From positions 55,366,001 to 55,430,000 of the forward strand of contig CM060733.1 of assembly GCA_030704615.1 (NCBI GenBank): DNA of 64,000 nucleotides, written 5' to 3'. Shown in pieces: positions 1,089-33,239 of this stretch. The position numbers were made by a program, and so were the translations under genes. Under the pieces are notes generated by a model, which worked only from the letters and a program-made list of their open reading frames with translations, did not search any database and had not been told where the DNA came from. Position 1 is the first letter of the stretch. The number at the start of each line of letters is the position of its first letter. The stretch comes from Takakia lepidozioides (lineage: Eukaryota > Plantae > Bryophyta).

Positions 1089-1151
1089 GTAAGCTACAAC
1101 CCCTCTCGCTTTTGGACTTTGAATTTGGAAGTCATTTCATTGCAAATCCTC

Positions 1152-1339
1152 TGTCGTGCGCATACATATCGCTACACAACTACATCGCTGTCCAAAACCA
1201 CACAACACATGTGCACACCACACACTAGTATACCACTAGTCTACCACTAGTCCAGCCACTAGTTTAACCACTAGGCTACAACTAGTCAGTCACTAGGCTG
1301 CCACTATGCTGCCCACTATGGCAGTCACTAGTCCACACA
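1152..1339 (-). repeat. Terminal repeat Y2 (outer half-LTR, ~188 bp)
   Basis: Near-identical to 1670-1857, 8312-8498 and 8819-9002; contains many CACTAG motifs. Confidence 0.9.
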
Positions 1340-1340
1340 A

Positions 1341-1857
1341 TGATAAAGAAGAAGAATACAAGCACAAGCTCATGCGAGCTCACAAAGCTGAAGCATAAAC
1401 TCATGCATATATAACCTCATCACTCAAATACAAGTCAAGCCAAGTGCACCCCACGCCATGGGGAATCCACACTACGGCGCCATAGCTAGGCGCGGTGAGG
1501 CTCAACTCGAGAAAGATGAGCCTCCCGCGCTTGCCGTGAAGATAACCACTCCAGGGCCTAAATCTGCCTTGACCCCTGGATTGACACTTGGGCCAATCCC
1601 AAATATCAATATGTAAAAGCTAGCTATTTCCTAGCTAGTTTCACACTAGTGGTAAAATAACTTGACAGCTGTCGTGCGCATACATATCGCTACACAACTA
1701 CATCGCTGTCCAAAACCACACAACACATGTGCACACCACACACTAGTATACCACTAGTCTACCACTAGTCCAGCCACTAGTTTAACCACTAGGCTACAAC
1801 TAGTCAGTCACTAGGCTGCCACTACGCTGCCCACTATGGCAGTCACTAGTCCACACA
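1341..1857 (-). repeat. Complete LTR unit (Y1-GC-X2), TG...CA in element orientation
   Basis: Minus strand begins TGTGTGG just after the purine tract and ends TTTATCA. Internal palindrome GACAGCTGTC at 1664-1673. Confidence 0.85.
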
Positions 1858-1859
1858 AT

Positions 1860-1870
1860 CGCCCCCCTAG
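1860..1870 (-). promoter_or_regulatory. Polypurine tract (PPT)
   Basis: Minus strand CTAGGGGGGCG immediately precedes the LTR; the same tract is in copy 2 (~9005-9015). Confidence 0.65.
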
Positions 1871-2117: not shown

Positions 2118-3500
2118 CTATCCCAAGCAGTGTGGACACAACCAATCTCCGTCAGGAACCTTCTCAAGAGGTGGTGTCAAGCATCCCATATGCCAACCCC
2201 TTGAGCATCGATCACACACCAGCATGGTGGCTGCCCCTTTGGCAGACCCACAGAGCATGCACCTCAAACCTGCAGGTACCACTGCCAAGTTTGGGTCAAC
2301 TCTGCCATCGACATTGGGAAGGTGACATGGCGCACAATTACGCACATGGTCCTTCCAAGTCATGTCATCCCGACCCTCCAAGATCAGGACCCCTGAGGGC
2401 AACACCTCTCGAACCCTCAGAATAACACGCCCTGCAGTAACATCCAGAGTCGTAGGAGCAGTCTGCTGCAAATAAACATAGTCACCAAGGCTAAACCTCC
2501 GAACCCCAGGACGATATCCTCCACCACGTATAGTGGCATACCTCAACGTATCACGGTGCTGTGCAATGGCAAGGTTCTCAAAAGCCATGGGCATGACTTT
2601 CTTGAACAACTCTGCACGCTGATCACATGCACGTACCCACACGTCCGGATCGTCAAGGTTAAGGACTTGAGCAGTGTCCCTACGAATGGCTGCAGGCAAA
2701 TCCGGCTCTCGGCCAAAGAGAAGAAATATGGTGAGAAGGAGGCAAGTGATGCTTGTTTGCTGAACCTGTAGCCCATGGCTAACCAAGGAACCTGAAGATC
2801 CCAATCTCCTAGGTGTCCCTTCTGCAAGCCATACTTGCGCAAACCCCTCTTCACCGTCTGAACAACTCTCTCTGCTAAGCCATCGGCCTCAGGATGATCC
2901 CGAGAAGTGGTGCGGTGGTCTATCAAGGCTTTATCACACAAAGCCTGAAACTCCCCCAAGAACTCTCTCCCTTGGTCCGTGAGTACCTCAGCTGGAGCAC
3001 CAAATCGGCTAAGCACACGATCCAAGAATGCATACGCAGCCCCCTCACTAGCCTTGTCAGGCAATGGAACCAACTCAATCCACTTGGAGAAGTGCTCCAC
3101 CATCACCAACACATATCTGTGGTGGCGCATAGTCAGTGGCAACGGTCCTGCGAAGTCAAGACTCCATCTGTAGCCCAATCCCATGATAGGTAAAGGATGC
3201 AACTGTGGTGTAGGGGCGTTAAACGAAGCACGCACCCTGTCACACACCATGCACCTAGCCACAAACTGTTGCACCTCTGTATGCATACCACGCCACCAAT
3301 ACTGCCCCTGTAGTAAACTGTGAGTGCGTCGCACTCCAAAATGCCCCAACTCCTCATGGGCATGCCGCACTAACCGTGCACGCTGTGTGGGGTGAGGCAC
3401 AATCCTCACCCGACCACCCTCCCACACTCGAAGTAGGTGTATCCCCTCCCACTTGAACCTCTTGGCTCGTTGCAGGATCCGATCCCTCTCCCCTGGCAGT
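2118..3500 (-). pseudogene. DDE integrase with C-terminal PHD finger (copy 1)
   Basis: HAHEELGHFG..CMVC zinc finger; WSLDFAGP, VLTDQG and DGLAER catalytic core; CMLC..CDRC..WH..C..WLCPHC PHD. Frameshifted. Confidence 0.93.
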
Positions 3501-5107
3501 CACAATGGCTGTCGTGTCTCCCGTGCGGAGGTAGTCCAACACAGCCGAATCCTCATGTATATCTCTGGCACCACCTAGGTCATCACTAGCCTCAGGGTCC
3601 TCAGACACTCCGTCTACAGTCATCCATGTTGTAGGTCCAATCTGACCTCGCGATGCCAAGATACACAAAAATGCAGATGCGTGCCATCCCGGCACCATCT
3701 CCTCGTCCGTCTCACCATGCCACCGAGCTCCAGTGTCATCCTGCTGGCTCATGCATGGATTGCGACTCAATCCATCCGCATCCCGATTGACCAAACCCGG
3801 TCCATGCACAACTTGAAAGTCATACTCCTGGAGTATAAGTGCCCACCGTGTAAGCTTCCCCGTAAGCTTGTCTGACTCCATCAACCACTTGAGTGGCTGG
3901 TGATCCGTGACAAGGGTGAAAAGATTGCCGTATAGATAGCACCTGAAGTGTGCCACGGCCCACACTGCAGCTAAGCACTCTCCCTCATATGAGCTGTACT
4001 TAGCCTCTGCAGCGTTGTTCGAGCGGCTAGCGTAAGCCACTACGAACTCTCTTCCCTCATCATCCACCTATGTGAGCACCGCTCCAAGCCCCAGCATGCT
4101 CCAATCCGTATGCAGCTGAAAGGGACGCCCCCTGATAGGTCGTCTCAAGATAGGCGCCGAGGTCAACCTCGCCTTGAGCTCTTGAAAAGCTCGTTCCTGC
4201 TCATCTTCCCACTGCCACTCCTGGTCCACCTTGGTCGGCTTGGTTAGAGCCTTTGCAATGGTACTAAATCCCTTGACAAACCGTCTATAATAGTTTGCCA
4301 ACCCATGAAAGCTCGAACTCGGCTCAGATCCGTGGGGCGTGGAATTTGTGCAATGGCCTCTACCTTAGTCTGCTGTACCCCCAATCCTCCAGGATATATC
4401 ATGTGACCCAGATACTCAATCTGGTTGTGGAAAAACTTGCACTTCCCCGGATGCAACTTCAATCCGTGCGCTCTCAAGCGCTCCAATACCACCTGAAGGT
4501 GTCTCTTATGCTCCTCCATCGTAACACTAAAGATGATGATGTCATCTATGTAGCACCGAGCAAAGTCCACCCCTGCTAGAATCCTATCCATGACTCTCTG
4601 AAACTCTGCAGGAGCATTCTTAAGCCCAAATGGTAAGAACCGCCACTGATATAGGCAATCCTTGCCGTGCTCATTGATCCCCCAGAATGTCGTCTTCTGC
4701 TTGTCCGCCTCCTTGATTGGCAACTGGTGATATCCGGATCGTAAATCCAAAGTGCTAAAGGCCTTAGCATGCCCGATGGCATCAAAGATCTCCTCTGGTG
4801 TTGGCATGGCATACTTATCGGACTTGGTCTGACGATTTACAGGCCGGTAATCACCGCACATACGTCTCTCCGTCCAATTGCCATAGACATCCTTCTTGGC
4901 TGGCATCACTGTGGCTGAAGCATACTCTCCACCAGAGAGCTCCACCAAACCTGCCTCCCAGAGATCTTGAGTCCTCATCTGAATCAAAGACCTCTCCATG
5001 TCACTGTATCTATAGGGTCTCCGAAAGATTGGCGTGTCAGTGGCCAACTCAATACGGTCTCTTGACCCTTCAGTGCTCCCAAGTCCTTCAAACTGAAGGC
5101 AAAGCAA
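3354..5107 (-). pseudogene. Reverse transcriptase + RNase H (copy 1)
   Basis: LDLRSGYHQ, PFGLKNAP and YIDDII (RT); TDWS, YSSYEGE and TDHQPL (RNase H). Confidence 0.95.
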
Positions 5108-5250
5108 TTCCTGTAAGCCCTCAGGAACCGCCGTATACGTCGTCTCTCTCCTCCGGTGACAATGGGTCCAATGTCAGGCTCCCAATTGTCCTCCGTAACT
5201 ACAACCTTAAGTCCAGTGGGCTTAGAGGTAGAGGACGCGTCCCGTGGTTG

Positions 5251-6612
5251 CTATGCTGCAACCTCTTGAGCAGTACTCCCTACCTGCTCAGTCAATGACA
5301 AGGCATCATCCTGCCCCATCATCTCATCCTTGAGGACCTCCTCAACTCGAGAAGAATCCCCAACCTCATCCATCACAGCCGCCTTGGCTGCCAACTCCCT
5401 CTGAACCTCGAGCACCTCCCACGTATGCCATGGATGCATGCACCCCGTGGTCCTCATATGCTCGCCCCCACTCACTGCCTGTACCGTCTTGGTAGGCAGA
5501 GAGACCATTGAGGGAAGTGTATTCCGCACTCTGCGTTGCTCAGCTAGAGCCAAGCTGATAATCCAGGTCAAGCAATTGAGATCCATTGCTTGCCCCAACA
5601 CTTGACGACGTGATGCCTCAGAAAGAGACGACACCGCTGTGGTACCAGTGGTAAAACCCATTGCCCGCTCACGCTCGTCAGCATTAGGCTCCACTAACTG
5701 CTGCAACTGAGCATCCCACAGGAGGCCAGGTCCACTATTCCGGAAAGCATGCGATCCTGGGAAGCTGAGCAGTGTAGGTAATGCTGCTCGTGGTTGACCC
5801 ACCTTGTTGACCACTGCCAAAGGCGAACGGTCATCGTGTCTCACACGTTGAGACTGCCTCCCTGTGTCCAGAATGTTATCCACTGTGAGATATGCTGGCC
5901 GTTGCACCCCATCAAATGCACGCTTGAGCAGTGCGGGTGGCATCATGTTAGTCCACCATAGCCGTGGACGATGAGCCCGTGACCCCACTGTAGCTGCATC
6001 TAGCAACACTGCTGACCCAAGCCACGACCGGACTTGATGCACACTGGCCATCACCCTGGCCCGAGAATCGCCCATCAGTGGCACATTCTTCAAGATGTAT
6101 GCTGGAGATACAGCTTGATGAAGCTGCAAGTGGCGCAAAACCCGCACCATCTCCCAAAACAGACCCGACCTCGAGTCTCGCAATCCATTGCCATGCCCGG
6201 CTGATGAATGCCCTTGGCAGGGCCAACCTGCCACTACCAGATCAATGGAGCCAACCCGCTCCAAATCCTGCGCCCCCAGCAACAAAATGTCTGCTGGCAA
6301 GGCCTGCTGATATCCACAAATTGCAGACACCGACAACAACTCAGGGTACCGCTGCACCAACTGAGCAACATGGCGAAGTGAAACGCGTCGTGCAGTCTCA
6401 TCCCTCTCCACATACAGGTAACGCCGAACTCGTACACCTGCCTGTAACACAGCAGCCAATCCGGTGCTAATCCCGCCAAACAAGTCCAGAAGACAAATGC
6501 CTTCATCCGGAGACTGCCACACAATAGGTGTGGTGTCCAATGGAGACAATTGAGGTGGTCCTGGTGCAATCCCCACACTCTCCTCCTCTCCTGACGGTAC
6601 AAAAGCCTCCAC
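5251..6612 (-). pseudogene. C5 cytosine DNA methyltransferase domain in pol (copy 1; ENV changed to KNV)
   Basis: LDLFGG (I), GWPCQG (IV), YILKNV (VI), RPRLWWTN (VIII), ERERAMGF (IX), RQVLGQAM (X). Confidence 0.92.
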
Positions 6613-7451
6613 TTAGGCTTGTTGCACCCGTCGATCAGCATCCCGCTGCAAATCCTTGCTCGTGCCCCACAATGGAGTCTGAGCAACCATGGTAGGCAAC
6701 TCCGCCATACCATACATGTCATCCTGCTCTCCCGGAGGTGGTACATCCTCTGAATGAGCATTGCCCTCAAGCAACTCTCTAGGCCAACTCACTGCCGCTG
6801 TGAATGCTGCTAGTGTCGGCATCTTGCCTCGCTGGGCAACCGCAACTCCTCCTATGAACGTCACAGGGAGCTGCACACGCCGGCCCTCCCCTGACTCCCA
6901 TGCAGGCCTATAGGAAGCTGACTCCTCCCAAAATCCCAGGGTGAAGCCCATGGGGTACAACACTGCCCCACCAACCAGGACATCGTATGAGACTGCGTCT
7001 GTCACAATGGCCTTGGCTCGCATCACTGAGCCATCTGTAGGGTGATCCGGCCGTAGTCTGATAGCCAACTCATGCCGTGTCATGCCCCGAGCCTGCTCCG
7101 ATCCTCCCAGAGACGTCTGTATCTGGAAAGGACAAGGCTCCATATCCGCCTCCGTGAGGCCCAAGCCTGTAATAGCAGCTCTGCCCAGCATCAGTGGCTG
7201 AGCTCCCGAGTCCAACAAGACTCGCAGTGGCCGGTACCTCTTGCCTGCCGGTCCACTCAAACAGAGAATGTCATCCTGGTTGTCTAACATGACAACTCCA
7301 GGTGTCACCATGGCGCGCTCAATGGCTGGCCTAGCTGGCAGCTCCATCAACCTGGCAGCTGCAGCTTGCCATGGCGCCGCTGTGGCAGTCTTGACCCTCA
7401 AATCCGAGGATCCCTCCGGCACTACACCTCCCACTATCTCCGCAGAAGATG
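6613..7451 (-). pseudogene. Retropepsin aspartic protease region (copy 1)
   Basis: VLLDSGAQP active site and YDVLVG. Confidence 0.85.
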
Positions 7452-7608
7452 GGCAAGAGAGGTAAATTTCATACTTTGCAAACATTTGTATTTCATATTT
7501 TTGAAGAGGATGGTTTGCGATCCCAAACGTGACAACTTTGTTCACAAGGCCACTCTGAGTTTCAACGAGGTCGATACTCTATTGCAGCGGGATACAACAC
7601 ATGGGTAG
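7452..7608 (+). pseudogene. C-terminal SWIM-like fragment, probably from a MULE transposase
   Basis: CKHLYFIF..VCDP..NFVH..TLSFNEV resembles the second half of a SWIM finger. Starts exactly at the Gypsy breakpoint. Confidence 0.5.
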
Positions 7609-8311
7609 CATCAACTATGCAATGTGGTATGTGGACGACCATGCTATGAAATGTGAAATTCAAATCAATTCGTTTGCAACATCGTCGGCGGTGCAATGAT
7701 ATGGCCTCCCTTATCCCTCCATTATGCTTCCAACTATACTGAATGAGCTCTGAGTGGCAACTTTTAAAAGCACATGCATCATTGCACCGTTGGAAGTCTA
7801 CATGTCTTCCTGTCGCTATGCACTGCAATCATCTTTTGAAGATGATCCTAACTCTCATTGTTATTTGGGGAGGGAGCAAGATCTTCCTGTGGCAACCTCT
7901 ATGGCGCACACTTTGTGAGGATATTTTCTCGTCCTCGCAATTGTAAAAGTGAAACAAACATTTGTAATTGCACAATGTTGGATGCTACAATTGTAGGCCA
8001 TGGTAGTCTTGATTGTATTCAGCCAAGGATTCCCTGCATTAATCCCACGGTCATAGGACCATCCTCGGTTATAGGCGGCGTATGTTAATGCTGACTTGGC
8101 AGATGATGGCGCAGTGCCACATCATCATTTGCCGCCACATCATCCTGCTGACATCATGCTCACTCCACGTCAGCGTGGGTGCAGGCTCACGCCATGTCAC
8201 TCCTGCGTGAGTGTACGCTCGCGCGCTCACACGCAAGGCTCATGCCATTGCGTCGTTGACGCCATGTCAGCAATGTTTCCCACGTAGAAGACTTAATTCC
8301 GCGGAAGTCGC

Positions 8312-9002
8312 TGTCGTGCGCATACATATCATACACAACTACATCGCTGTCCAAAACCACACAACACATGTGCACACCACACACTAGTATACCACTAGTC
8401 CACCACTAGTCCAGCCACTAGTCCAACCACTAGGCTACAACTAGTCAGTCACTAGGCTGCCACTATGCTGCCCACTATGGCAGTCACTAGTCCACACAAT
8501 GATAAAGAAGAAGAATACAAGCACGAGCTCACAAATCTGAAGCATAAACTCATGCATATATAACCTCATCACTCAAATACAAGTCAAGCCAAGTGCACCC
8601 CACGCCATGGGGAATCCACACTACGGCGCCATAGCTAGGCGCAGTGAGGCTCAACTCGAGAAAGATGAGCCTCCCGCGCTTGCCGTGAAGATAACCACTC
8701 CAGGGCCTAAATCTGCCTTGACCCCTGGATTGACACTTGGGCCAATCCCAAATGTCAATATGTAAAAGCTAGCTATTTCCTAGCTAGTTTCACACTAGTG
8801 GTAAAATAACTTGACAGCTGTCGTGCGCATACATATCGCTACACAACTACATCGCTGTCCAAAACCACACACATGTGCACACCACACACTAGTATACCAC
8901 TAGTCCACCACTAGTCCACCACTAGTCCAACCACTAGGCTACAACTAGTCAGTCACTAGGCTGCCACTATGCTGCCCACTATGGCAGTCACTAGTCCACA
9001 CA
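8312..9002 (-). repeat. Y-X-GC-Y terminal repeat block, copy 2
   Basis: Y 8312-8498, X 8500-8816, GC, Y 8819-9002. Confidence 0.9.
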
Positions 9003-9243
9003 ATCGCCCCCCTAGCTGGTGCTTAGGTCCCTCTAAGTCCAGGTAGCCACAAGATGTGATAGTGACCATAGCCTCACTAAGTCCTCCACCACTATCCCTA
9101 CTACACTCAAACTCGATAGATCAAGAGGCCGGGTGCGTCGCCGTCTTGTAACCTGTGAACTTGAGCTTGGGATCTCATGTATTGACTCCTATGAGCTTGG
9201 CCTCCCATGTCTTGTTAGCTGCCTCCAGTCATGTCCACTGCCA

Positions 9244-10822
9244 CTATCCCAGCAGTGTGGACACAACCAATCTCCGTCAGGAACCTTCTCAAGAGGTGGT
9301 GTCAAGCATCCCATATGCCAACCCCTTGAGCATCGATCACACACCAGCATGGTGGCTGCCCCTTTGGCAGACCCACAGAGCATGCACCTCAAACCTGCAG
9401 GTACCACTGCCAAGTTTGGGTCAACTCTGCCATCGACATTGGGAAGGTGACATGGCGCACAATTACGCACATGGTCCTTCCAAGTCATCCATCCCGACCC
9501 TCCAAGATCAGGACCCCTGAGGGCAACACCTCTCGAACCCTCAGAATAACACGCCCTGCAGTAACATCCAGAGTCGTAGGAGCAGTCTGCTGCAAATAAA
9601 CATAGTCACCAGGGCTAAACCTCCGAACCCCAGGACGATATCCTCCACCACGTATAGTGGCATACCTCAACGTATCACGGTGTTGTGCAATGGCAAGGTT
9701 CTCAAAAGCCATGGGCATGACTTTCTTGAACAACTCTGCACGCTGATCACATGCACGTACCCACACGTCCGGATCGTCAAGGTTAAGGACTTGAGCAGTG
9801 TCCCTACGAATGGCTGCAGGCAAATCCGGCTCTCGGCCAAAGAGAAGGAAATATGGTGAGAAGGAGGCAAGTGATGCTTGTTTGCTGAACCTGTAGCCCA
9901 TGGCTAACCAAGGAACCTGAAGATCCCAATCTCCTAGGTGTCCCTTCTGCAAGCCATACTTGCGCAAACCCCTCTTCACCGTCTGAACAACTCTCTCTGC
10001 TAAGCCATCGGCCTCAGGATGATCCCGAGAAGTGGTGCGGTGGTCTATCAAGGCTTTATCACACAAAGCCTGAAACTCCCCCAAGAACTCTCTCCCTTGG
10101 TCCGTGAGTACCTCAGCTGGAGCACCAAATCGGCTAAGCACACGATCCAAGAATGCATACGCAGCCCCCTCACTAGCCTTGTCAGGCAATGGAACCAACT
10201 CAATCCACTTGGAGAAGTGCTCCACCATCACCAACACATATCTGTGGTGGCGCATAGTCAGTGGCAACGGTCCTGCGAAGTCAAGACTCCACCTGTAGCC
10301 CAATCCCATGATTGGTAAAGGATGCAACTGTGGTGTAGGGGCGTTGAATGAAGCACGCACCCTGTCACACACCATGCACCTAGCCACGAACTGTTGCACC
10401 TCTGTATGCATACCACGCCACCAATACTGCCCCTGCAGTAAACTGTGAGTGCGTCGCACTCCAAAATGCCCCAACTCCTCATGGGCATGCCGCACTAACC
10501 GTGCACGCTGTGTGGGGTGAGGCACAATCCTCACCCGACCATCCTCCCACACTCGAAGTAGGTGTATCCCCTCCCACTTGAACCTCTTGGCTCGTTGCAG
10601 GATCCGATCCCTCTCCCTGGCAGTCACAGTGGCTGCCGTGTCTCCCGTGCGGAGGTAGTCCAACACAGCCGAATCCTCATGTATATCTCTGGCACCACCT
10701 GGCTCATCACTAGCCTCAGGGTCCTCAGACACTCCGTCTACAGTCATCCCTGTTGTAGGTCCAACCTGACCTCCCGATGCCAAGATACACAAAAATGCAG
10801 ATGCGTGCCATCTCGGCACCAT
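9244..10822 (-). pseudogene. Integrase + PHD (copy 2)
   Basis: Same motifs as copy 1; 445-aa open frame covers the integrase core. Confidence 0.92.
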
Positions 10823-12211
10823 CTCCTCGTCCGTCTCACCATGCCACGAGCTCCAGTGTCATCCTGCTGGCTCATGCATGGATTGCGACTCAATCCATCC
10901 GCATCCCGATTGACCAAACCCGGTCGATGCACAACCTGAAAGTCATACTCCTGGAGTATGAGTGCCCACCGTGCAAGCTCCCCGTAAGCTTGTCTGACTC
11001 CATCAACCACTTGAGTGGCTGGTGATCCGTGACAAGGGTGAAAAGATTGCCGTATAGATAGCACCTGAAGTGTGCCACGGCCCCACACAGCTAAGCACTC
11101 TCCCTTATATGAGCTGTACTTAGCCTCTGCAGCGTTGTTCGAGCGGCTAGCATAAGCCACTACAAACTCTCTTCCCTCATCATCCACCTGTGTGAGCACT
11201 GCTCCAAGCCCCAGCATGCTCCAATCCGTATGCAGCTGAAAGGGACCCCCCTGATAGGTCGTCTCAGGATAGGCGCCGAGGTCAACCTCGCCTTGAGCTC
11301 TTGAAAAGCTCGTTCCTGCTCATCTTCCCACTGCCACTCCTGGTCCACCTTGGTCAGCTTGGTTAGAGCCTTTGCAATGGTACTAAATCCCTTGACAAAC
11401 CGTCTATAATAGTTTGTCAACCCCATGAAAGCTCAAACTCGGCTCACATCCGTGGGGCGTGGAATTTGTGCAATGGCCTCTACCTTAGTCTGCTGTACCC
11501 CCAATCCTCCAGGATATATCATGTGACCCAGATACTCAATCTGGTTGTGGAAAAACTTGCACTTCCCCGGATGCAACTTCAATCCGTGCGCTCTCAAGCG
11601 CTCCAATACCACCTGAAGGTGTCTCTCATGCTCCTCCATCGTAACACTAAAGATGATGATGTCATCTATGTAGCACCGAGCAAAGTCCACCCCTGCTAGA
11701 ATCCTATCCATGACTCTCTGAAACTCTGCAGGAGCATTCTTAAGCCCAAATGGTAAGAACCGCCACTGATATAGGCAATCCTTGCCGTGCTCATTGATCC
11801 CCCAGAATGTCGTCTTCTGCTTGTCCGCCTCCTTGATTGGCAACTGGTGATATCCGGATCGTAAATCCAAAGTGCTAAAGCCTTAGCATGCCCGATGGCA
11901 TCAAAGATCTCCTCTGGTGTTGGCATGGCATACTTATCGGACTTGGTCTGACGATTTACAGGCCGGTAATCACCGCACATACGTCTCTCCGTCCAATTGC
12001 CATAGACATCCTTCTTGGCTGGCATCACTGTGGCTGAAGCATACTCTTCACCAGAGAGCTCCACCAAACCTGCCTCCCAGAGATCTTGAGTCCTCATCTG
12101 AATCAAAGACCTCTCCATGTCACTGTATCTATAGGGTCTCCGAAAGATTGGCGTGTCAGTGGCCAACTCAATACGGATCTCTTGACCCTTCAGTGCTCCC
12201 AAGTCCTTCAA
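10744..12211 (-). pseudogene. RT + RNase H (copy 2)
   Basis: YIDDII and neighbouring motifs; 1-bp indels. Confidence 0.93.
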
Positions 12212-12370
12212 ACTGAAGGCAAAGCAATTCCTGTAAGCCCTCAGGAACCGCCGTATACGTCGTCTCTCTCCTCCGGTGACAATGGGTCCAATGTCAGGCT
12301 CCCAATTGTCCTCCGTAACTGCAACCTTAAGTCCAGTGGGCTTAGAGGTAGAGGACGCGTCCAGTGGTTG

Positions 12371-13864
12371 CTATGTTGCAACCTCTTGAGCAGTACTCCC
12401 TGCCTGCTCAGTCAATGACAAGGCCTCATCCTGCCCCATCATCTCATCCTTGAGGACCTCCTCAACCCGAGAAGAATCCCCAACCTCATCCATCACAGCC
12501 GCCTTGGCTGCCAACTCCCTCTGAACCTCGAGCACCTCCCACGTGTGCCATGGATGCATGCACCCCGTGGTCCTCACATGCTCGCCCCCACTCACTGCCT
12601 GTACCGTCTCGGTAGGCAGAGAGACCATCAAGGGAAGTGTACTCCGCACTCTGCGTTGCTCAGCTAGAGCCAAGCTGATAATCCAGGTCAAGCAATTGAG
12701 ATCCATTGCTTGCCCCAACACTTGACGACGTGATGCCTCAGAAAGAGACGACACCGCCGTGGTACCAGTGGTAAAACCCATTGCCCGCTCACGCTCGTCA
12801 GCATTAGGCTCCACTAATTGCTGCAACTGAGCATCCCACAGGAGGCCAGGTCCACTATCCTGGAAAACATGCGATCCTGGGAAGCTGAGCAGTGTAGGTA
12901 ATGCTGCTCGTGGTTGACCCACCTTGTTGACCACTGCCAAAGGCGAACGGTCATCGTGTCTCACACGCTGAGACTGCCTCCCTGTGTCCAGAATGCTATC
13001 CACTGTGAGATGTGCTGGCCGCTGCACCCCATCAAATGCACGCTTGAGCAGTGCGGGTGGCATCAAGTTAGTCCACCATAGCCGTGGACGATGAGCCCGT
13101 GACCCCACTGTAGCTGCATCTAGCAACACTGCTGACCCAAGCCACGACCGGACTTGATGCACACTGGCCATCACCCTGGCCCGAGAATCGCCCATCAGTG
13201 GCACATTCTCCAAGATGTATGCTGGAGATACAGCTTGATGAAGCTGCAAGTGGCGCAAAACCCGCACCATCTCCCAAAACAGACCCGACCTCGAGTCTCG
13301 CAATCCATTGCCATGCCCGGCTGATGAATGCCCTTGGCAGGGCCAACCTGCCACTACCAGATCAATGGAGCCAACCCGCTCCAAATCCTGCGCCCCCAGC
13401 AACGAAATGTCTGCTGGCAAGGCCTGCTGATATCCACGAATTGCAGACACTGACAACAACTCAGGGTACCGCTGCACCAATTGAGCAACATGGCGAAGTG
13501 AAACGCGTCGTGCAGTCTCATCCCTCTCCACATACAGGTAACGCCGAACTCGTACACCTGCCTGTAACACAGCAGCCAATCCGGTGCTGATCCCGCCAAA
13601 CAAGTCCAGAAGACAAATGCCTTCATCCGGATACTGCCACACAATAGGTGTGGTGTCCAATGGAGACAACTGAGGTGGTCCTGGTGCAATCCCCGCACTC
13701 TCCTCCTCTCCTGACGGTACAAAAGCCTCCACCCAGGCTTGTTGCACCCGTCGATCAGCATCCCGCTGCAAATCCTTGCTCGTGCCCCACAATGGAGTCT
13801 GAGCAACCATGGTAGGCAACTCCGCCATACCATACATGTCATCCTGCTCTCCCGGAGGTGGCAC
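12371..13864 (-). CDS. C5 cytosine DNA methyltransferase domain in pol (copy 2; catalytic motifs intact)
   Basis: 497-aa open frame with LDLFGG, GWPCQG, YILENV, RPRLWWTN, ERERAMGF and RQVLGQAM. Confidence 0.93.
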   Translation of the reverse strand: MPPPGEQDDMYGMAELPTMVAQTPLWGTSKDLQRDADRRVQQAWVEAFVPSGEEESAGIAPGPPQLSPLDTTPIVWQYPDEGICLLDLFGGISTGLAAVLQAGVRVRRYLYVERDETARRVSLRHVAQLVQRYPELLSVSAIRGYQQALPADISLLGAQDLERVGSIDLVVAGWPCQGHSSAGHGNGLRDSRSGLFWEMVRVLRHLQLHQAVSPAYILENVPLMGDSRARVMASVHQVRSWLGSAVLLDAATVGSRAHRPRLWWTNLMPPALLKRAFDGVQRPAHLTVDSILDTGRQSQRVRHDDRSPLAVVNKVGQPRAALPTLLSFPGSHVFQDSGPGLLWDAQLQQLVEPNADERERAMGFTTGTTAVSSLSEASRRQVLGQAMDLNCLTWIISLALAEQRRVRSTLPLMVSLPTETVQAVSGGEHVRTTGCMHPWHTWEVLEVQRELAAKAAVMDEVGDSSRVEEVLKDEMMGQDEALSLTEQAGSTAQEVAT

Positions 13865-13869
13865 ATCCT

Positions 13870-16523
13870 CTGAATGAGCTTGCCCTCAAGCAACTCTCTA
13901 GGCCACTCACTGCCGCTGTGAATGCTGCTAGTGTCGGCATCTTGCCTCGCTGGGCAACCGCAACTCTCCTATGAACGTCACAGGGAGCTGCACACGCCGG
14001 CCCTCCCCTGACTGCCATGCAGCCTATAGGAAGCTGACTCCTCCCAAAAATCCCAGGGTGAAGCCCATGGGGTACAACACTGCCCCACCAACCAGGACAT
14101 CGTATGAGACTGCGTCTGTCACAATGGCCTTGGCTCGCATCACTGAGCCATCTGTACGGTGATCCGGCCGTAGTCTGATAGCCAACTCACGCCGTGTCAT
14201 GCCCCGAGCCTGCTCCGATCCTCCCAGAGACGTCTGTATCTGGAAAGGACAAGGCTCTATATCCGCCTCCGTGAGGCCCAAGCCTGCAATAGCAGCTCTG
14301 CCCAGCATCAATGGCTGAGCTCCCGAGTCCAACAAGACCCGCAGTGGCCGGTACCTCTTGCCTGCCGGTCCACTCAAACAGAAAATGCCATCCTGGTTGT
14401 CTAACATGACAACTCCAGGTGTCACCATGGCGCAGCTCCATCAACCTGGCAGCTGCAGCTTGCCATGGCGCCGCCGTGGCAGTCTTGACCCTCAAATCCG
14501 AGGATCCCTCCGCACTACACCTCCCACTATCTCCGCAGAAGATGAATAACCTCCCCACTCTCACAGAGTGTAGTTGCCAGCCTAACACCTCAGCTGGTTT
14601 TACCCCCGGCGTCGCAATCATGGTAGCCGAGAACAATGGAGCCTGGCACACAGATGTGGCCGCTCCTAGCAGCACACTAGCTGCCGTAGCCTTGGCAACA
14701 CTAGGTAGTGGTGCTACCCGTGTAGCTCTCCCCAATGGCATAGTAACCTCCGCCTCGGTAACCGTCGGGCGAGAACTAGGTGCCATGGATGGCGTCGACA
14801 CTGTCTCTGCCAATGTGAATGACTGAGGAAGCCTAGCCTGACGGCTTGCCTCCCACGCTGTGGATCCAACTCCACCTCTGCACCTCGTGGCTCAGGAACT
14901 CGTGCTGCTCCTCGAGTCACGGCTGCAGCAGACTCCACCTGCACTAGTGGTAGTGCTGCTCCACACATGAATCCCATGCCTCCCATATCTCCTCCCTCAG
15001 GAGCAGGAGGTGGACCATCCGGCCTTAGAGCCGGTACCACCTGAGCTGTAGCCATGGCAGCGAGCCTCTGCTCTAGCTGCTGAAGCCGGTTGGCCCCTTG
15101 GTCAACACCCTGACCTCCGCGTCCTTGGCCACGTTGAGCTTGCCCTTGGCCTGCACCTCGTGGCTGGCCACCTCGTCCTCTCTGGCTGCTCCACCTCGCC
15201 CCCGGCCACCATTGTTCCCTTGGAACTGGCCTGGGCGCAACTCAGGATGCAAACCATAACACTGGGCCTCTCCATGCCCGTGCTTGCCACAATGCCCACA
15301 CTGCAACTGTGCAGGCTGTGCATGTGCCGACCCTTTGCCTCCCTCTGGGCAATCCTTCTTGACATGGGGTCCTCCACATGTCCAGCACACCACATCTGCC
15401 CGTTGTTGCCAGCAAATGAAGGGAGAGACCCCTGCATCTGAGGTCCTCTCTGCCCTTCCCTGAGCTTCACCTGAGCCCCCTTGTTGCCTTGAGCACGTTG
15501 AGGTAGTGGTTGGCTAGGAGCACCACTACCCCGTGGTGTCTCCTTAGCAAATCCCACCATGACCACTCGTTCCTCCACCATGTTGAGCTCTATCCGCTCT
15601 GCCAGCAAAAACACATTTGCTAAGGTGGGTTGGGCTGCTTGTAGGAGAGTTGCATCCCGCACCCTTCTCCTCAGCTCCTTGTCCAATATCCCATACCAGA
15701 ATTGGACTGCCTGAGCTTCCGTAACCCTTGGGTTACATTTATCAAGCGCCTCATGCGAGTGAAAGCCTCCCTCAAGCTCTCGGTCGGCTTCCGTTGGAAC
15801 TCTTGCAGCTCCGCAACTTCTCTGTCTCACCCTTGTAGTTCCCTCTCAACTCTTCGAAGAACTCCACAACAGGGTTGAGGCAGTGCACGGGTGCTAGTGC
15901 TGGTGCGGTAGTGGCTTGGGTGGACGTCGTAGCTACTGTACCACCAGTTCCACTAGTCCCACTGCTACTTGCTGAAGCTGCCGGTGCAGCGGCAGGTGTA
16001 GCCACTGCCCTCGTGGCTCTAGTGCCCCTAGTGATGGAGACATAGTCGGGTGACCAGTACATCCTCCACTCCTCGATCTCAACCTCATGCCCCCGCCTGA
16101 ACTCATGGTAATCATCCATAGGCGGCCCCTCAAGGTGCTGAAACAGCCCCTTCCATGCCATGAAAGGCGTAAAATAGTTGTGGATTGCGCATTTGCTGCA
16201 AATCACACCAACTATCAAACTCTTGGATAAAATCATCCAACTCGATGGTGCCCACCGCCCCAGAGTACCTTCGTGGCCCTTGGTAGCTCCATACATCTCC
16301 TCCATTGTGTCCCACAACAATGGCAAGAAACAACTTGCACCGCCGTATGAGTCCTCCTGATTCACAATCCGAATCAGAACCTTCCGTAGAAGACACAGGA
16401 GGTGAAGGTGGCCTAAACCACACACCTCGTCTCATGTACCCACTAGTATCGCTAGTGCTCGAACCGGCACTGTCCTTAGCAACTAGTGGCACCTCCGTGT
16501 TGACACTCAACCGGTCATGAACA
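13870..16523 (-). pseudogene. gag (two CCHC knuckles) + protease (copy 2)
   Basis: CWTCGGPHVKKDC, CGHCGKHGHGEAQC, ELDDFIQEFDSW and VLLDSGAQP; many indels. Confidence 0.82.
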
Positions 16524-17794
16524 TGTCCCTAACCCCCCTCCACAAGGTAACCGGGTAGAGAACTGTTGCGGCTTATGGTTTGGAATACTAAGTTCCTAAC
16601 ATAGCCTACACCTGTACCTGCATCCACCGCAAGCACTCCTATGGTTGGCTGGTCATTACCTCCAACCTCACCACAGAGAGACAATGATGGTCTGGCTGGT
16701 CATCACCCCAATCTCACCATCGACAACATGCTCTAGGACTGGCCGGTGATCAAATCCGGACCAATCACCTATAAAAACAAGCGCCTACACAAAACTAGCA
16801 TGGCGCACAGTCAAGCATGCATGTATGGAGGGGATCCAAAACACAAGAAATCAGGAGCGACAACTCCCCCACACCAAAAACAACTCACCGGTGTTTGCTC
16901 CTGCAATGACATACCCCAGCCAAACCCGGACTGACTCTTGCCTCCACCTACGGAAAGGTCTTGGCCTAATGAGAGGGTGGAAGAGAAGCTAAAGCAATGC
17001 CTAACCCCAACATTGCCCTCATCCCAACACTCTTCCTCTCCTCTCTTCCCTCACTTGCATGACCATGGGAATATCATGAAGATACTCCTCAAACCGCCCT
17101 CCACGAGCTTCAAATTTGGCCTTCAAGACCATGCCAGTCCTTAGGCAGTCCACCAGTGCCTCCACGAGTCAGCACAGGCCGTCCACAGGTCAACACGGGC
17201 CCACAGACCAGCACAGGCCCACACAGCTCACTGGTCACATCCGTCACAGTCCCACTGGCCACTGGGCACAGCCTGTCACAGCCCCTCATAGCCCGTCACA
17301 GCTCGCCACAGCCCTGTCACATCCCGTCACACGCCCGTCCTCATGCTGCTATTCATGAGCCATGAGCCATGAGCGGCATGAGCCATGAGCAGAGTCGTAA
17401 GTGTGGAAAAAAACATGAGCAGCACTATTTTCCATGAGTGTCCGCGGGAATAGGGTTTAGGGTGCCACGGTCATAGGGGGAGAAGGACCTCCCGATGAAG
17501 GAGGTTCGGCAATGTTATTTAGAATTATATATTGAAAGGCAATGTTTCGCGAATGGTAGGGTGGTACTGCTCTGTACAATGGGGGCCCATTTCAGCCTAC
17601 CAGCCATTTGCAAAATCACCCACACTCCCAATCCAAACGAAATGAGCAATGACGCATTCTCGGAACGATGGACACAGAATAGAATAAAAAGAGGGCACAA
17701 TGAGGTTTTTATTGATCCACATGAATTGCATTTGAAGCACGTCTACTGTGCTGATTGTGCCATCAAATTGAGCCCTGTGCCTACTGAATACAAG

Positions 17795-18564
17795 TCACGT
17801 TGTCAATGGGACTTCGACTGCTCTCAGAACTAGCTCATGAGTCATGGGGCTCCTCCATGTAAAGTCGATTGCAGCCGTTGTACCGCCCCTAGTGATGTTC
17901 ACCACAATGTCCTGCCCTTCAATCATACCACCATCGAATATGGAAATCTTCACGTTTTCGTCGTCCACACCAATGCGAATGTCCCCATACAATGGAGAAG
18001 AGGAGCGCACTCCTCGAGGAGAATAGGTCTCTCCGATGGAGTCCACCCACGTCCAGTGGCAGCAGTTCCACCGCAACAGCATAGCAGTGCGCCTTCTTCT
18101 GCATGGGTGACCGTCGTAGCTGGGAAAATCGGAATCGAGGATGCGCAGGAGCCACGGACTCCTCAGACCAAGATCGTCACCCCGCTCGAAGGCGTAGTGG
18201 CTACGATATACTCAAAAGCCACCAATGTTTCCACAATCGAACCAGTATCTTCTGTGTAATCTGTGTACCAGATAACAATGTCTCCCGATGTGGCCGAATA
18301 CATTGCATAATCGATGCCTCCAAAGGGGCAGTCGTCCCGGTTCCGGAAGCACGGCATCCTTGCAAAGGAGGACCTGAGGACGACTTGGATGCCGATGACC
18401 TTGCGGACAGCTACGAAGCCCTTAGATTTTGGAAATGATACGAAGCGGAAGAGCAGTCCGGCCTCCAATAATGGAGCATCTGGGTCACACGTACCCACCG
18501 ACGGAGGTGGAACGTGTTCATCACGCCAGCGGTGGATGAACCCATACATCTTTCTCATCAACAA
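17795..18564 (-). pseudogene. Unknown cargo ORF, paralog 1
   Basis: RWNCCHWT..D..GETY...PLYGDIR...SIFDGGMIEGQDIVV is shared with 19092-19424. Confidence 0.55.
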
Positions 18565-18789
18565 GTTATAGTTTGAGATCTGCCACGAAGTCCATCCCCC
18601 GGATGGAAATTCGGCGCCGCATTTACATCGAAGAGGGGATGGACTTCGTCGTGTCCAGTGGCTATCGGCCCACCTGGCAGTGACTGCCCATAGTTTGCAT
18701 GGCAGGGTAGGAAACTGAAACGGCTACATTCATGCAGCAGCCAATCTTCATCGGTCCAGGATCCTGTAGGGGGGAAATTTAAATGTGCC

Positions 18790-19424
18790 GTGTTTGTGAG
18801 GAATTGCAGCGTTAGCTTGAACTTTTTCCAGCCACCGACATCCGGGAGCTGCTGTCTGAGCGTACTCCGCTACTCTTTTTTCGTGCCGCCGAAATCCAGC
18901 CGACTGCCCTTATCATGGCCACGATTATGCTATGTTCAAACCAGAATCAGACATCATTGTCTGGCTCTCTGTTTTCACAGACGCTGCTGGAATCAAGCAA
19001 GAGTCTTTGCGCGCAATGGAGTATCTGGAGGGCTATTACCGCTTTGAGCGAGGTGAGGGCGAGGGTCAATGCGGTCCGTGGGTCCTGAAAATTGTTGACC
19101 TCGATATACCAAGCAGGGATGCCGGACAGATCACGCACGGCCTCGCTTTGGCGCTGGAACTGCTGCCAGTGGACCAGGGAGGACGGCACCGGGGAAAACT
19201 ATATACGTGCAGATCACTCCGCTCTTCCAGTGTATGGAGACATTCGGCTGAGTTGCGAAGACGAATCGCACGGGCACATGAGGCCCACAGTGACCTTGTC
19301 AATGTATGATGGTGGTATCATTGATGGACATGACATTGTCGTCGGCTCCAGCAAGGGCAGCAGAACGACCGAATTGCAGTTTACCTCGAGGTTCAGTGAT
19401 GAGCTCGAAGTTCCGTCGACGTGA
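18790..19424 (+). pseudogene. Unknown cargo ORF, paralog 2
   Basis: RWNCCQWT..D..GENY...PVYGDIR...SMYDGGIIDGHDIVV. Confidence 0.55.
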
Positions 19425-19665
19425 AGCCCGGGCTTAGTTTTGTCTGCAGTTGGTAAATGTGAGACATCGTGTCCGATCATAAACCCATCGTACCTCACTT
19501 CTGTATGATTGTGTTTCATTGTGTTGAATAACTGTCGGAATTGGCCCACTGTTTACAATTTGATGTCTCATTTCTACAATGTGTCTGTCCGGATGAATAT
19601 AGCAGAGTAACCGGTATGTGAGTCATGTGTCAAGAATATACCAGAGTAACGCCATGTCGGACATT

Positions 19666-20378
19666 GAAATGCGGCACCGCATGTCGGCATCGAAATGCGG
19701 CGCCGCATTTCCATGTCCGAAATTTCCATGTGGGACAAGAAAATGCGGTGCATCATTTCCGTCCAGGTACACGAAATACCAACACGGGTCTATAAATTGT
19801 TTGGCATTGCAAATGCGGCGACGCATTTCCAGCTTGGCAATGGAAACTTCTTTTTGGACAAGGGAATGCGGTGCCGCATTTCCGTCCAACACTTCGAAAA
19901 GTGTGACATTTCCGACCAGCGCGATGGAATGCGTTACCGCATTTCCGAGAGAGGGTCTGCAAATGGACAAATTGCGATGTCCGTTCTGGAAATGCGGCGC
20001 CGCATTTCCATGTCCGTCATCGACTTTTTTTTACAATGGAATGCGGTGCCAATTTTTGCTGATGGGCCTGCAGTTCGAACAACGACCATCCCCATATGGA
20101 AATGCGGCACCGCATTTCAATCCCGCCATCTTCGACCTCCTTGTTCGACCTCTGTAAGCGTGGTGGCATCCATGCAATGAGCGGGAGAGGCCAAAACTGG
20201 CGTGTGGACAAAGGAAATTTTGGAAATGCGGCACCGCATTTCCAATTCAGATTACTTTTTACTATGCCAACATTGAAATGGAAAATTTAGTCCCTCCCCT
20301 GTTTTGGAAATGCGGTGCCGCATTCCAAAAGAGGTTCTTAGAGTTGCCAAAATTTTGGAAATGCGGTGCCCCATTTCT
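19666..20378. repeat. Palindrome cluster 1 (~12 x GGAAATGCGGYRCCGCATTTCC)
   Basis: Read directly; mostly non-repeated spacers; lies downstream of gene B. Confidence 0.9.
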
Positions 20379-20514
20379 GATTTTGGGAGCGTCGTGGTTT
20401 GGGCGATTGTGTGGCTGGAATGCACACTGGAGAGGGGTCACGAATGTCGGGCAGAATTTCCTTTATATACTCTGGAAGAGAATTTACATTTACAGAGACT
20501 TCATTAAAATTCTA

Positions 20515-23500
20515 TTAATCTTGAAAATCATCCGAATCCTCATCCTGTTCTAGACTGTCCTGCTCCTCCTCCACCCCCTCAGTGCCTCTCTCATCTCCAG
20601 CGGACTGCTCGTTGGCCAGGCTTTCGAAAATCCCATCTTCCCCTTGCGGAACTGTCCATCTCACCTCCGTTGGGTCGTCTTCCTCCCTGTCTGCGTCGCT
20701 CTCATCCGCTGAATCACATATGTACTTTCGTACCCGTCTACCTGTCTGAGCTGCTGCCAACTCTTTCCTTATCCTTCTGTCCTCCCTAGCCCTCTCCAAA
20801 ATCTGCTCTACTTTACTGGGATTCTCACTTCTTCTAATCGCTGTATTTGCGAGTTTAGCTGCATAACTAGGAAGGGAGTAGTCCCTCACCGGGCTCGTCA
20901 TGAAGTCGGCCCTCGCAAAGAACGGGACATTCTTCCTGGCAGGAAGTGTAGGCCCTACATGTTTCGACCCGGACCCTGCAATCCTGCACATGACAATCAT
21001 CAACGAGACTAATGAGAACCACAGTCGGGAAATTCGTTTGACATAAATGACCCAGAAGGCTTTGCAAACTTACAATGTTTGCACTCACTCGTATCCGGGT
21101 TCTCCTCCGCATCAATGTCCACTGTGTCTTCCTCGGACTCCGACGAATCCGAGGAGACTTCCGCTCTGTCGGGAGCCTTCACATTCCGTTGCAGCCCTCC
21201 AGATGGGATCCCCACACGGATGAATCTCCTCGTAGGCAAAGAGGTGCCGGTCGGAAAACCGCCCAGCCCACATTGAGGCACCTGTTACAATGCCATCCAC
21301 ACATTACCACATGGCGCTTCAGATGTTGCGAACTACATCCTAACGAGAATTTGCAGAACAGCAGAGATCAAGATTCTGCATACCTGTCCCACAGATGAGG
21401 TCGAGCACTGTGCCCTCCACGTCTGTGCATGTCTCCATAATTGTCTGAATGAAGGCAGGGCTCCGAGTCCGTGAGTACCGCAGGGGTTCCGTTGAGTGAG
21501 GCTATGAGGGAGAGTTCCTTGGGAACGTTGTTGAACAGAACGTCGTAATCGAGTGGGTCGCAGTTCGGGTCAACCTTTCCTCCCTCCTTCCGGAAAGCAA
21601 AGGTGGAGTTCTCCTTCACAAAGCAGTATGCATCGAACTGCTTCGTCTGCATACACAGGGGGAAAACGATTAGAAACCGAATGCGGCACCGCATTTGAAA
21701 AACACCCAAGCAAATGAATGGACGAGTGCCAGTGTCGTAATCACCTTCTTCCCTTCCGACCGAAGGCCCAGTGTGTTGATGCACGTCCACTTCTTTTTCA
21801 GAATCGGGACGGCGCTCTTGCGGGTCCACTTCGCAATTCCTGTCTGAGTGTTTTTTCCTCTGCTCGCCAGGACAACCACACAGCCTCTGTCGTCCAACAC
21901 CATGCGGGCAAGCCCGAATCCTTTCTTCCAAAAGTCCTCCGAGTACCTGTTCCAAGATGGCAAAGCTTGCAGTCCTTCCACAGGCTCTCCGTCCGGAATA
22001 TCCAAGATGATCATATCGCAAGACCACTCGGTGGCATTTCCGCCCCTCCTACAATCCTTGTCTGCACACACCCTCTCAAAGAACGAGACCATATTCTGAA
22101 ATCCTGGGGTGTCGGAAGGCTCTTCGGCAGTCGCCTTCTTCAGTGCTCTGCCCTTCAGACCCTCCATGGTCTTCATGTATGCCAACTTGGCTGCCCGTCC
22201 ATCCAAAGCCGCCACTCTCATTTACACACTGGACTACTGTTTCGGGAGCCTTTCGGCCTCTTCATTTCCACCGGCTCGAAAGGGTGCCCCCCTGGGGGGT
22301 TGAAGAGTGCCTTCTTTGCCGAGCCAGTTCTCGTGCCTCTCGTGACAACGGTGGGCACAGGGGAGGCAGCCTGCGTTTGGGGGGGTGGGCTGGTTGCAAA
22401 GTCTCCATCGGAGTCCTCTTCCTCACCCTCTTCCTGAACAGGCTGTTTCTGCTTCTTCGTTTTGGCGGGTGTCACAACAGCTGCTCCTTGCTGGCGAGTC
22501 CTCTTCTTCGACCCCTTCTGTTGGGCCTGCACAGCTGCATCCACCGTCTTTTGTGCCATCTCAGCTGCCTTTCTGGATTCTTCCAGAGCAGCAGATTCCT
22601 TTGCCGACTTGGGCCCAGCAGGGACACGTCTTTCCTTTCTCTTCTCTTCTGCCAAGGCGTGCAGATCTTTCTCAGACTCGTCAACAATACCGCCAGACAT
22701 GTCCAGGTACCACGGGCATCCAACGAGATGCGCGGGATGCCATTGTTTCTGCATCTCGGGTGTGTAGACACAGCTTGGGCCCGCCACGGTCCAAGCCATG
22801 AAGAACGGGGGCTCTTGAGCCAGGGCCCCTGTCTGAAGGAGCACGTATTTCATATACCTGCAAGGCAGTCAGCATGCGTGAGCAAAAGTTGAGACCAACC
22901 TACTGGCAGAGTGCCACCGAAAACATAAAATGCGAATGCGGTGCCGCATTTCCGAGACAAACCTCGTAACCAGGCTTCGCATACAAGGGCAGCTGTGCTT
23001 CACCTGTAAACAATTCGCATTGCAGCTTTCCCCGCTCCCTCCTGATGTGTAAACTCCACGCTCCTTCTTGCTGTCTGTAGCTCTCTGGCGAAAAGGTTGT
23101 CCTTGTACGCACATCTGAAACGTGTCACGTAGTCTTCCAATGTCTGTGTTCCATCCCATTTGACGTACAAGCCGAACGAATTTGTGTGCATTACGACTTG
23201 CTCCTTCGCATTCGACATTACCTGCGATTCCCAAATGCATTGTCACGTAGCAGTTCAGGGAATTCATGTCAGAAAAGCAAATCTGGGGAAGTACCTTGAA
23301 TTACCTGGAACCACCAAGTCATACGGTTGAGCCACATCCACTGCAGGGTCGGAAACTTCAGTGGAAAAGACCACATTGTCCTTATGCTCTCGGATGCATT
23401 CCAGATCGACAGCCACCGTGTCTGCCATTTCCGATCCAATGTCAGGAGCTGGAAGAGAGTGGCTATTGCTAGGAAGGAACTTCAGTGCATTGAAACCTCA

Positions 23501-25716: not shown

Positions 25717-26053
25717 GAGAGGGAAAAGGGGCAAAGAGTGCAGATGGAAAGGGCGCGAGAGGGGTGACTGAGGAGACACGACAAAAGTAGATGAAACGGC
25801 GGTGATGCACCACTTGGGTTCGAAAGGGTTGGACGAAAGTGTCTCCTCGTGGAGTTTGCGTCATTACGAAATTCGAATCGTTGAGGGTACGCCTGCCGTC
25901 CAAAAAACAAACATCATTATCCAACGGTCAGGCCGCGCGCCTCATGCCCCTTCAGTCAGATAGAGTGCCGACATGTGCAGCAATTCCGTTGCTCCACGTG
26001 TTCACATTTCAAGGCATTTCCGTCCCAGCGTCTGATGAGTTGGAGCGAAAATG

Positions 26054-32996: not shown

Positions 32997-33239
32997 GTCC
33001 CTAACCCCCTCTCCACAAGGTAACCGGGTAGAGAACCTGTTGCGGCTTATGGTTTGGAATACTAAGTTCCTAACATAGCCTACACCTGAACTTGCATGAC
33101 CATGGAATATCATGAAGATACTCCTCAAACCGCCCTCCACGAGCTTCAAAATTCGGCCTTCCAGACCACATGTCAGTCCTTAGTCCACCAGTGCCTCCAC
33201 GAGTCAGCATAGGCCATCCACAGGTCAACACGGGCCACC

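Follow-up and report, generated by a model that had tools for sequence, protein, structure and literature searches.

Self-comparison of the 64-kb stretch of DNA analysed here (hereafter the window) revealed two copies of one element, both on the minus strand (Table 1). The element belongs to a Gypsy family whose end repeat consists of two parts, X and Y. Copy 1 spans 1152-7451 and 31023-36131, measures 11.4 kb without its insert, and has the order X-PBS-ORFs-PPT-Y-GC-X-Y. In full this reads X1, PBS, leader, gag, protease, cytosine methylase, reverse transcriptase (RT), RNase H, integrase, PHD finger, polypurine tract (PPT), Y1, GC, X2 and Y2, and all of the pieces that the initial annotation of this DNA had named (X1, PBS, ORFs, PPT and Y-GC-X-Y) lie where it had placed them. 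The ends of copy 1 are 35 kb apart because the interval 7452-31022 interrupts the element. X1 and X2 are 98.5% identical, and Y1 and Y2 are 99.5% identical. Copy 2 matches copy 1 at 97.4% identity, with 92 mismatches and 24 gap openings, and shows the Y-X-Y block only, since its 5′ end is lost.

Table 1. Features of the element copies in the 64-kb window, in order of position.
Feature	Position	Strand	Evidence or remark
Target-site duplication (TSD) CCTC, 3′ side of copy 1	1148..1151		single CCTC in empty-site contigs
Y2, terminal repeat; element 3′ end ...CACGACA at 1152	1152..1340	minus	diverse flanks at equivalent place 1670
X/Y join of copy 1	1341/1340	minus	X2 meets Y2
X2 (TGTCAAG...TTTATCA), predicted distal U3-R-U5	1341..1667	minus	U3-R-U5 labels are predictions
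Palindrome GACA-GC-TGTC at the Y1-X2 boundary, putative integrase attachment site	1664..1673		same site in 24/24 related Y-X-Y insertions, with decay
GC between Y1 and X2	1669-1668	minus	centre of palindrome
Y1, predicted proximal U3, directly after PPT	1670..1858	minus	repeat comparison
Polypurine tract AGGGGGGCGA	1859..1868	minus	relatives: G-run before Y1
Integrase (H2C2 + rve, D-D(34)-E) and C-terminal PHD finger, frameshifted in copy 1	2121..3499	minus	domain search
RT and RNase H, in pieces	3357..5173	minus	domain search
Dnmt3-like C5 cytosine methyltransferase domain; ENV motif is KNV in copy 1, ENV in copy 2	5254..6612	minus	
Protease region up to break by large insert	6616..7451	minus	copy 2 equivalent: weak Asp_protease_2 match, E 0.003
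Foreign insert, 23.6 kb, splits copy 1 and contains copy 2; 7 element bases missing at break	7452..31022		
Copy 2: Y2 8312-8499, X2 to 8816, palindrome 8813-8822, Y1 8819-9003, pol and gag ORFs	8312..17339	minus	5′ end lost
Copy 1 5′ part: long leader with GTCACA-rich repeats, gag	31023..35790	minus	weak Retrotrans_gag match, E 5e-4
PBS CTCGAGAAAGAT, directly after X1	35791..35802	minus	complementary to site inside X; putative self-priming
X1, element 5′ end; begins GTCAAG, first T missing; no Y before	35803..36131	minus	
ATCTTTCTCGAG, predicted RNA 5′ end and self-primer	35973..35984	minus	also at 1506-1517 and 8655-8666; fold z -4.9
TSD CCTC, 5′ side of copy 1	36132..36135		

Several other features surround the two copies. 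The insert that splits copy 1 has no TSD and no terminal inverted repeat that could be seen, and it holds a 53-bp repeat array at about 26.0-27.7 kb, transposase-like ORFs at 27973-30575 without a Pfam match, and a possibly GCM-like stretch at 28560-29147. The host gene interrupted by copy 1 (552-1151 and 36132-40500, minus strand) is high-copy and has a DGNHR motif, for which ParB-like is presumably the right label; it is probably part of another large mobile element. Its paralog, at 67%, lies inside the insert at 20.6-24.7 kb on the minus strand, and an array of self-complementary units of about 95 bp occupies 37351-38130 in the right flank of copy 1. Further along, a SCARECROW-type GRAS gene runs as one open frame at 53928-56405 on the plus strand, its protein being 79% identical to that of Sphagnum and at most 70% to those of seed plants among the named matches. 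An exon at 61731-62186 (plus strand), judged by eye, is presumably peptide-deformylase-like. No tRNA gene was found in the window.

The coding content of the element is that of a Gypsy Pol. The order gag-PR-RT-RH-IN with a DDE integrase is as in Ty3/Gypsy, with weak gag and protease matches, and the best solved-structure match is Ty3 Gag-Pol (E 3e-20). Also as in Ty3/Gypsy, the PBS follows the 5′ repeat, the PPT precedes the 3′ repeat and the TSD falls within 4-5 bp. The catalytic spacing of the integrase is D-D(34)-E in 86 of 89 parsed sequences (121 examined), which leaves a one-residue gap relative to Ty3 and PFV and departs from the D-D(35)-E of Ty3/Gypsy. The copy 2 integrase lies at 9488-10858 (minus strand), and D-D(34)-E may serve as a clade marker. 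The claim of the initial annotation that this is a DDE Gypsy element is borne out, the integrase being present and no tyrosine recombinase being found in the 67 + 19 frames of at least 80 amino acids that were scanned (E 0.01). Nor was there a chromodomain match after the integrase in the frames scanned; a PHD finger is present instead. The methylase is Dnmt3-like, with DNMT3A as its best match (E 1.5e-11), and sits inside the Gypsy Pol, as in the KnitGypsy-Dnmt3 clade. Found in the window at 5254-6612 and 12374-13885 (minus strand), it is a Dnmt3-like enzyme in a land-plant retrotransposon; methylase-encoding transposons are described, in the relevant passage of one earlier paper, as absent from land plants such as tracheophytes (PMC6338049).

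A first line of evidence on how the element inserts comes from its ends in the host. The sequence GACAGCTGTC occurs twice in the window, each time at the boundary of Y and X, where the chance mean is 0.17 and none of 100 shuffles reaches two. CCTC stands on both sides of copy 1, as the initial annotation had supposed in proposing it as a TSD, and contigs with the empty site carry a single CCTC. These contigs come from runs X5 and X6 and from run X1 (9 contigs), and they probably represent paralogous sites because the flank itself is high-copy. In the paralog at 23.8-24.4 kb the outer flanks of copy 1 are contiguous (scores of 138 and 112, with at most 33 in 100 shuffles of the right flank), and copy 1 therefore sits in one intron. 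X1 lacks its terminal base, which is likely an assembly error or a mutation, given that X1 has four small indels relative to family contigs.

Contigs in the host's own runs show the same ends with many unlike flanks. Among the matches listed, 18 contigs in run X2 with unlike flanks end before 1670 and 21 in run X4 end behind 1667 (agreement 0.40), the two runs being one sample, possibly the one from which the window derives. These two breaks are the two halves of GACA-GC-TGTC, just as had been proposed from copy 1, where the ends were matched to the palindrome halves with the central GC lost. One further new flank was found in each of runs X6 and X12, from other studies, and that in run X12 has the terminal base intact. 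Among the matches listed for the loose ends of host-run contigs, diverse flanks at the Y start or the X end were absent. The host runs also contain, at window position 1854, subfamilies with the same PPT and Y start followed by a different Y sequence.

A second line of evidence comes from related loci in metagenomes. A scan with an integrase alignment yielded at least 600 stretches and at least 447 relatives, of which the best 80 loci were taken; viral contigs gave one weak locus (L001, left out of the counts) and then none. In this best-80 set of at least 447 relatives, 53 loci could be classed. The PPT-Y-X-Y end was seen in 34 of the 80, amounting to 24 distinct insertions in three families by repeat sequence, and a PPT-Y end, with Y only, in 19 of the 80 (17 insertions). 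The 27 unclassed loci had too little downstream DNA, truncated repeats or no match, and they include L051 and L049 (both cut by contig ends), L045, L071, L079 and L020. In most of the longer related loci, the methylase, RT, RNase H and PHD finger occur in the same order. Nearly all classed insertions of the best-80 set end in GACA or a decayed form of it, and the palindrome is found in all 24 Y-X-Y insertions, its centre always two bases long (GC in 7, AC in 10, GT in 3, AT in 3 and AA in 1). This centre is GC or its C-to-T decay product on either strand in 23 of the 24. Comparison of the window's X and Y with the related loci by blastn gave no match among the matches listed, so the site is conserved and the repeats are not.

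Both ends are visible in 12 loci of the best-80 set, seven of the form X...YXY and five of the form X...Y. L005 was left out for having the same 5′ flank as L009, and L012 and L013 for contigs that start inside X1. None of the 12 has Y before X1, the test giving only two matches of 12-17 bases and covering, in L042, only 158 bases of upstream DNA. Complete LTRs at both ends, delimited by PPT and PBS, occur neither in the window nor in any of the 12 relatives. A 4-bp TSD is exact in six of the loci, agrees at three of four bases in another four and is absent from two, whereas mismatched flank pairs gave 0/132 exact duplications and 7/132 that were one base off. It is thus confirmed that inserted copies start and end at the palindrome halves, lack GC at both ends and carry a 4-bp TSD throughout the family; the prediction that copies would end at TGTC/GACA with TSDs of their own holds in 10 of the 12 two-ended relatives at three or four matching bases. 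A TSD of 3 or 5 bp would fit the window alone and is contradicted by the relatives. Retention of GC at the element end was likewise rejected, one of 41 distinct 3′ flanks of relatives starting with GC, and the GC beside the copy 2 flank, to which the initial annotation had drawn attention, is probably there by chance.

Some of the related loci have peculiarities of their own. A PPT-Y-X-PBS arrangement in L020 (8540-9000) represents a fifth family, which has GACAGTTGTC and a self-priming pair of its own; because this contig starts and ends in leader repeats, repeat collapse is its likely origin, the other candidates being a 1-LTR circle and a tandem copy. L057 carries a solo XY (TGTC...AACA) at 7019-7346 with an exact AACA duplication, and similar XY pieces occur in L024 and L025. 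Since recombination yields both X...Y copies and solo XY too, neither was counted as proof of circles. One family, represented by L070 (9306-9335) and L075 (11640-11660), has a doubled CGTCACGACA unit at the Y end; Y2 in L070 and Y1 in L075 each lack one of the two units, through either a subsequent deletion or cutting at the first unit.

A third line of evidence concerns priming and the predicted ends of the cDNA. The 12 bases after X1 in the window are complementary at all 12 positions to a site in mid-X, a match that suggests a self-priming PBS in this family. Of 13 elements compared, 10 have such a PBS complement inside X, matching at 11-12 of 12 bases, and its sequence differs among three families; in 8 of the 13 a TATA match lies 31-36 bases upstream of it; in three old copies the complement reaches 9-10 bases and is not above shuffles. 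A G-rich tract adjoins Y1 and the PBS adjoins X1. Under the standard LTR scheme the cDNA would likely be YX...YX, and because of these PBS and PPT positions its predicted ends are the two sides of the X/Y join. The initial annotation had read this place in copy 1 as X-T-Y. An LTR-LTR-type junction it does appear to be; the extra T is better abandoned, the X end TTTATCA being directly joined to the Y start TTGTG. The further claim that Y plus X forms a canonical TG...CA LTR fails across the clade, as the Y start has no conserved TG and reads ATACATG in one related family.

The join itself varies. Among 15 insertions of one family it is exact in five, has AT added in six, and has A, T, AG or another form in one each, the extra letters agreeing with bases at the beginning of the PBS or with the final base of the PPT. 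Most joins in a second related family are exact. On a tree built without the join, the join types require 8 changes against a shuffled mean of 8.0 (as low in 147 of 200), a test of little power because the tree is star-like and good support is confined to 1 of its 12 inner branches. Three copies that group together (support 92/94) have three different join types. Within copy 1, Y1 and Y2 share a rare TT at 1264-5, where the family has about 100% CC, and X1 and X2 share a rare A at 1605/36070, where it has 98% G. Duplication from one template would give such sharing, and gene conversion or assembly polishing could be another source of it. In old relatives, X1 is nearest its own X2 in 4 of 6 (5 of 6 for the R-U5 part) and Y1 nearest its own Y2 in 6 of 13, with two ties. 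The view that X/Y behaves like a join of two predicted cDNA ends is supported, and the join is probably made anew from those ends, with possible AT slippage after insertion as another route between the exact and AT-bearing forms.

Very probably, then, the attachment site of the integrase is the internal palindrome. The best explanation of the whole, for and against which the scales hang level, is that a two-LTR cDNA has its ends joined into a circle and is cut at the palindrome of its 5′ LTR. In a first step, the RNA would start in mid-X1, at the site complementary to the PBS, and fold onto the PBS to prime itself. Second, the PPT and PBS, from their observed positions, would fix the cDNA ends at the start of Y and the end of X. 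Third, host end-joining would link these ends, giving X/Y with the 0-2 extra or missing bases that are seen there, and the linear YX...YX cDNA would thus become a circle whose 5′-LTR palindrome the integrase could then cut. Fourth, as the loss of GC and the genomic ends suggest, the integrase would nick after CA on both strands and leave 2-base 5′ GC overhangs, like processed retroviral ends. Fifth, strand transfer with a 4-bp stagger would produce X...YXY. Such a product keeps the promoter, PBS, PPT and both copies of R and would replicate again, and the X...Y copies could be dead ends that arise from 1-LTR circles, double cuts or subsequent Y-Y recombination.

The circle is the part of this scheme most exposed to doubt, and whether it closes before the cut could fall out either way. 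Two-LTR circles are usually regarded as dead ends. Two equal palindromes in a closed 2-LTR circle predict XYX...Y as often as X...YXY, whereas the 12 loci and the window together contain eight X...YXY copies and no XYX...Y (one-sided p about 0.004). Thus, of what the initial annotation had proposed, the internal palindromic attachment site agrees with ends at the palindrome halves, and the closed circle, if symmetric, is at odds with these counts. Selection would favour X...YXY, as only this form keeps both R copies, and collapse of XYX to X by recombination could hide some XYX...Y copies. The mostly exact join in the second family, the PPT-Y-X-PBS contig L020 and the partial own-copy pairing in old relatives also count against the scheme.

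In the strongest alternative, cutting comes first and joining later: the integrase would cut linear YX...YX cDNA at the palindrome of the left LTR, keep the two new ends together and insert them, and host repair would join the leftover X end and Y start within the chromosome, with no free circle. This predicts the same ends, TSD and variable X/Y join; the different contexts of the two LTRs in a linear molecule could account for the eight X...YXY copies against no XYX...Y, and pairing of the left X start with the right Y end would give X...Y directly, as in 5 of the 12 loci. Every insertion would then involve a break in the chromosome that has to be repaired, yet the joins are mostly within 0-2 bases of exact, and the scheme leaves the preference for the left LTR without explanation. 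We regard it as unlikely, though worth serious thought. A doubtful alternative has the RT make the join by jumping from the right end to the left end and recopying Y up to the palindrome, after which the integrase would finish the ends. It would account for the use of the 5′ palindrome only, and the joins can be read with an overlap of 1-2 bases (A in the window, AT in one family), but +AT and +AG joins occur without overlap, and end jumps of this kind are not known as usual behaviour for an LTR-type RT.

Somewhat less credible still is templated copying in the manner of Ngaro/PAT, in which the whole of X...YXY, X/Y included, would be transcribed and inherited and the ends rebuilt from the internal Y-X boundary. 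The A...B-A-B layout is indeed that of Ngaro/PAT, the joins of one family are mostly exact and own-copy pairing of Y1 with Y2 reaches only 6 of 13; against this, the PBS adjoins X1 and the PPT adjoins Y1 as in standard LTR priming, the join keeps PBS- or PPT-like letters and differs between sister copies, and the element has a 4-bp TSD and no tyrosine recombinase in the frames scanned. Finally, it is scarcely credible that an ordinary YX...YX or XY...XY element was rearranged once or misassembled, as the indel errors of the assembly, the missing terminal base of X1 and the large insert in copy 1 might suggest, given the same layout in 24 independent insertions of three other families in the best-80 set, exact TSDs, no Y before X1 in 12 of 12 loci, the empty site, and the many flanks that meet the palindrome halves in runs of the host itself.

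Beyond the single locus, it is conceivable, at a little under even likelihood, that an old Gypsy clade of green algae, liverworts and mosses has moved its attachment site to a palindrome of the LTR, has the 2-LTR circle as an obligate precursor and tells the 5′ palindrome from its identical 3′ twin. It has long been asked whether DDE integrases can accept circles as precursors of integration, and the debate has hitherto drawn on side reactions of HIV and foamy virus; here a whole clade has genomic ends unlike its predicted cDNA ends and a defined 10-bp site. The preferred circle scheme would explain a layout noted without explanation in Klebsormidium, would mean that no tyrosine recombinase is needed for split direct repeats to arise, and would correct element boundaries in bryophyte genomes. 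The initial annotation had expected standard LTR finders to miss the family; wrong boundaries seem as likely as a miss, because both X1 and X2 have the form TG...CA. Close relatives of both the methylase (61-76%, with one more in Sphagnum fallax) and the integrase occur in the laboratory model Marchantia polymorpha.

Among known systems, the nearest is KnitGypsy-Dnmt3 of Klebsormidium nitens, for which the legend of Fig. 4 describes Gypsy domains with DIRS-type repeats, A-coding-B-A-B (de Mendoza et al. 2018, PMC5890265). That legend overturns the initial annotation's premise that split repeats are foreign to DDE Gypsy elements. Both elements combine a Gypsy Pol with a Dnmt3-like methylase and these repeats, and matches to K. 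nitens proteins stand at 50-56% for the integrase and 46% for the methylase, the latter in a DNMT-RT-RH-IN polyprotein. As the methylase is Dnmt3-like and the K. nitens proteins are clear homologs, the two probably belong to the same clade. The Takakia copy differs in residing in a land plant rather than an alga, and the legend's account (PMC5890265) does not give end sequences, palindrome, TSD, PBS/PPT or mechanism. Ngaro and PAT-like elements share the split direct repeats, described as A1...B1-A2-B2, and a methylase domain is noted in PAT and DIRS in the portion of the literature concerned (PMC7192593); the present family differs in its DDE integrase, 4-bp TSD, PBS and PPT, in the absence of a tyrosine recombinase from the frames scanned, and in a methylase of the C5 Dnmt3-like kind.

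A PBS complementary to the LTR instead of a tRNA is described for Tf1/Sushi and Tcn1, the latter also in mosses, with plant-lineage TSDs of 4 or 5 bp, in the sections of PMC6317226 that deal with them. The putative self-priming here resembles theirs by complementarity of sequence, and the family departs from them in its PHD finger and methylase, its lack of a chromodomain match, its split repeats and its internal attachment site. According to a figure legend (PMC9940879, Fig. 6), the Gypsy-7a_cRei element, which is active in laboratory strains of Chlamydomonas, combines a PHD finger with a left LTR that is short of the last 8 bp of the right LTR; its PHD stands before the integrase in the domain list, and the likeness is one of description. 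Foamy virus and HIV-1 integrases are reported, in the relevant parts of two papers, to cleave palindromic 2-LTR junctions (PMC1180852, PMC4372172), and the cut proposed here would likewise be made by a DDE integrase at an internal palindrome to yield processed ends. In those viruses the palindrome coincides with the LTR-LTR junction, provirus and cDNA are collinear and the cut restores ordinary ends, whereas in the present family the palindrome is internal to the LTR, the true junction shows no conservation and copies in the genome normally have the permuted form. Within the open-access literature, no description of a retrotransposon with an internal attachment site was found. What was already known is the layout, given in one legend sentence without a mechanism; what is new is the moved attachment site, which is well supported.
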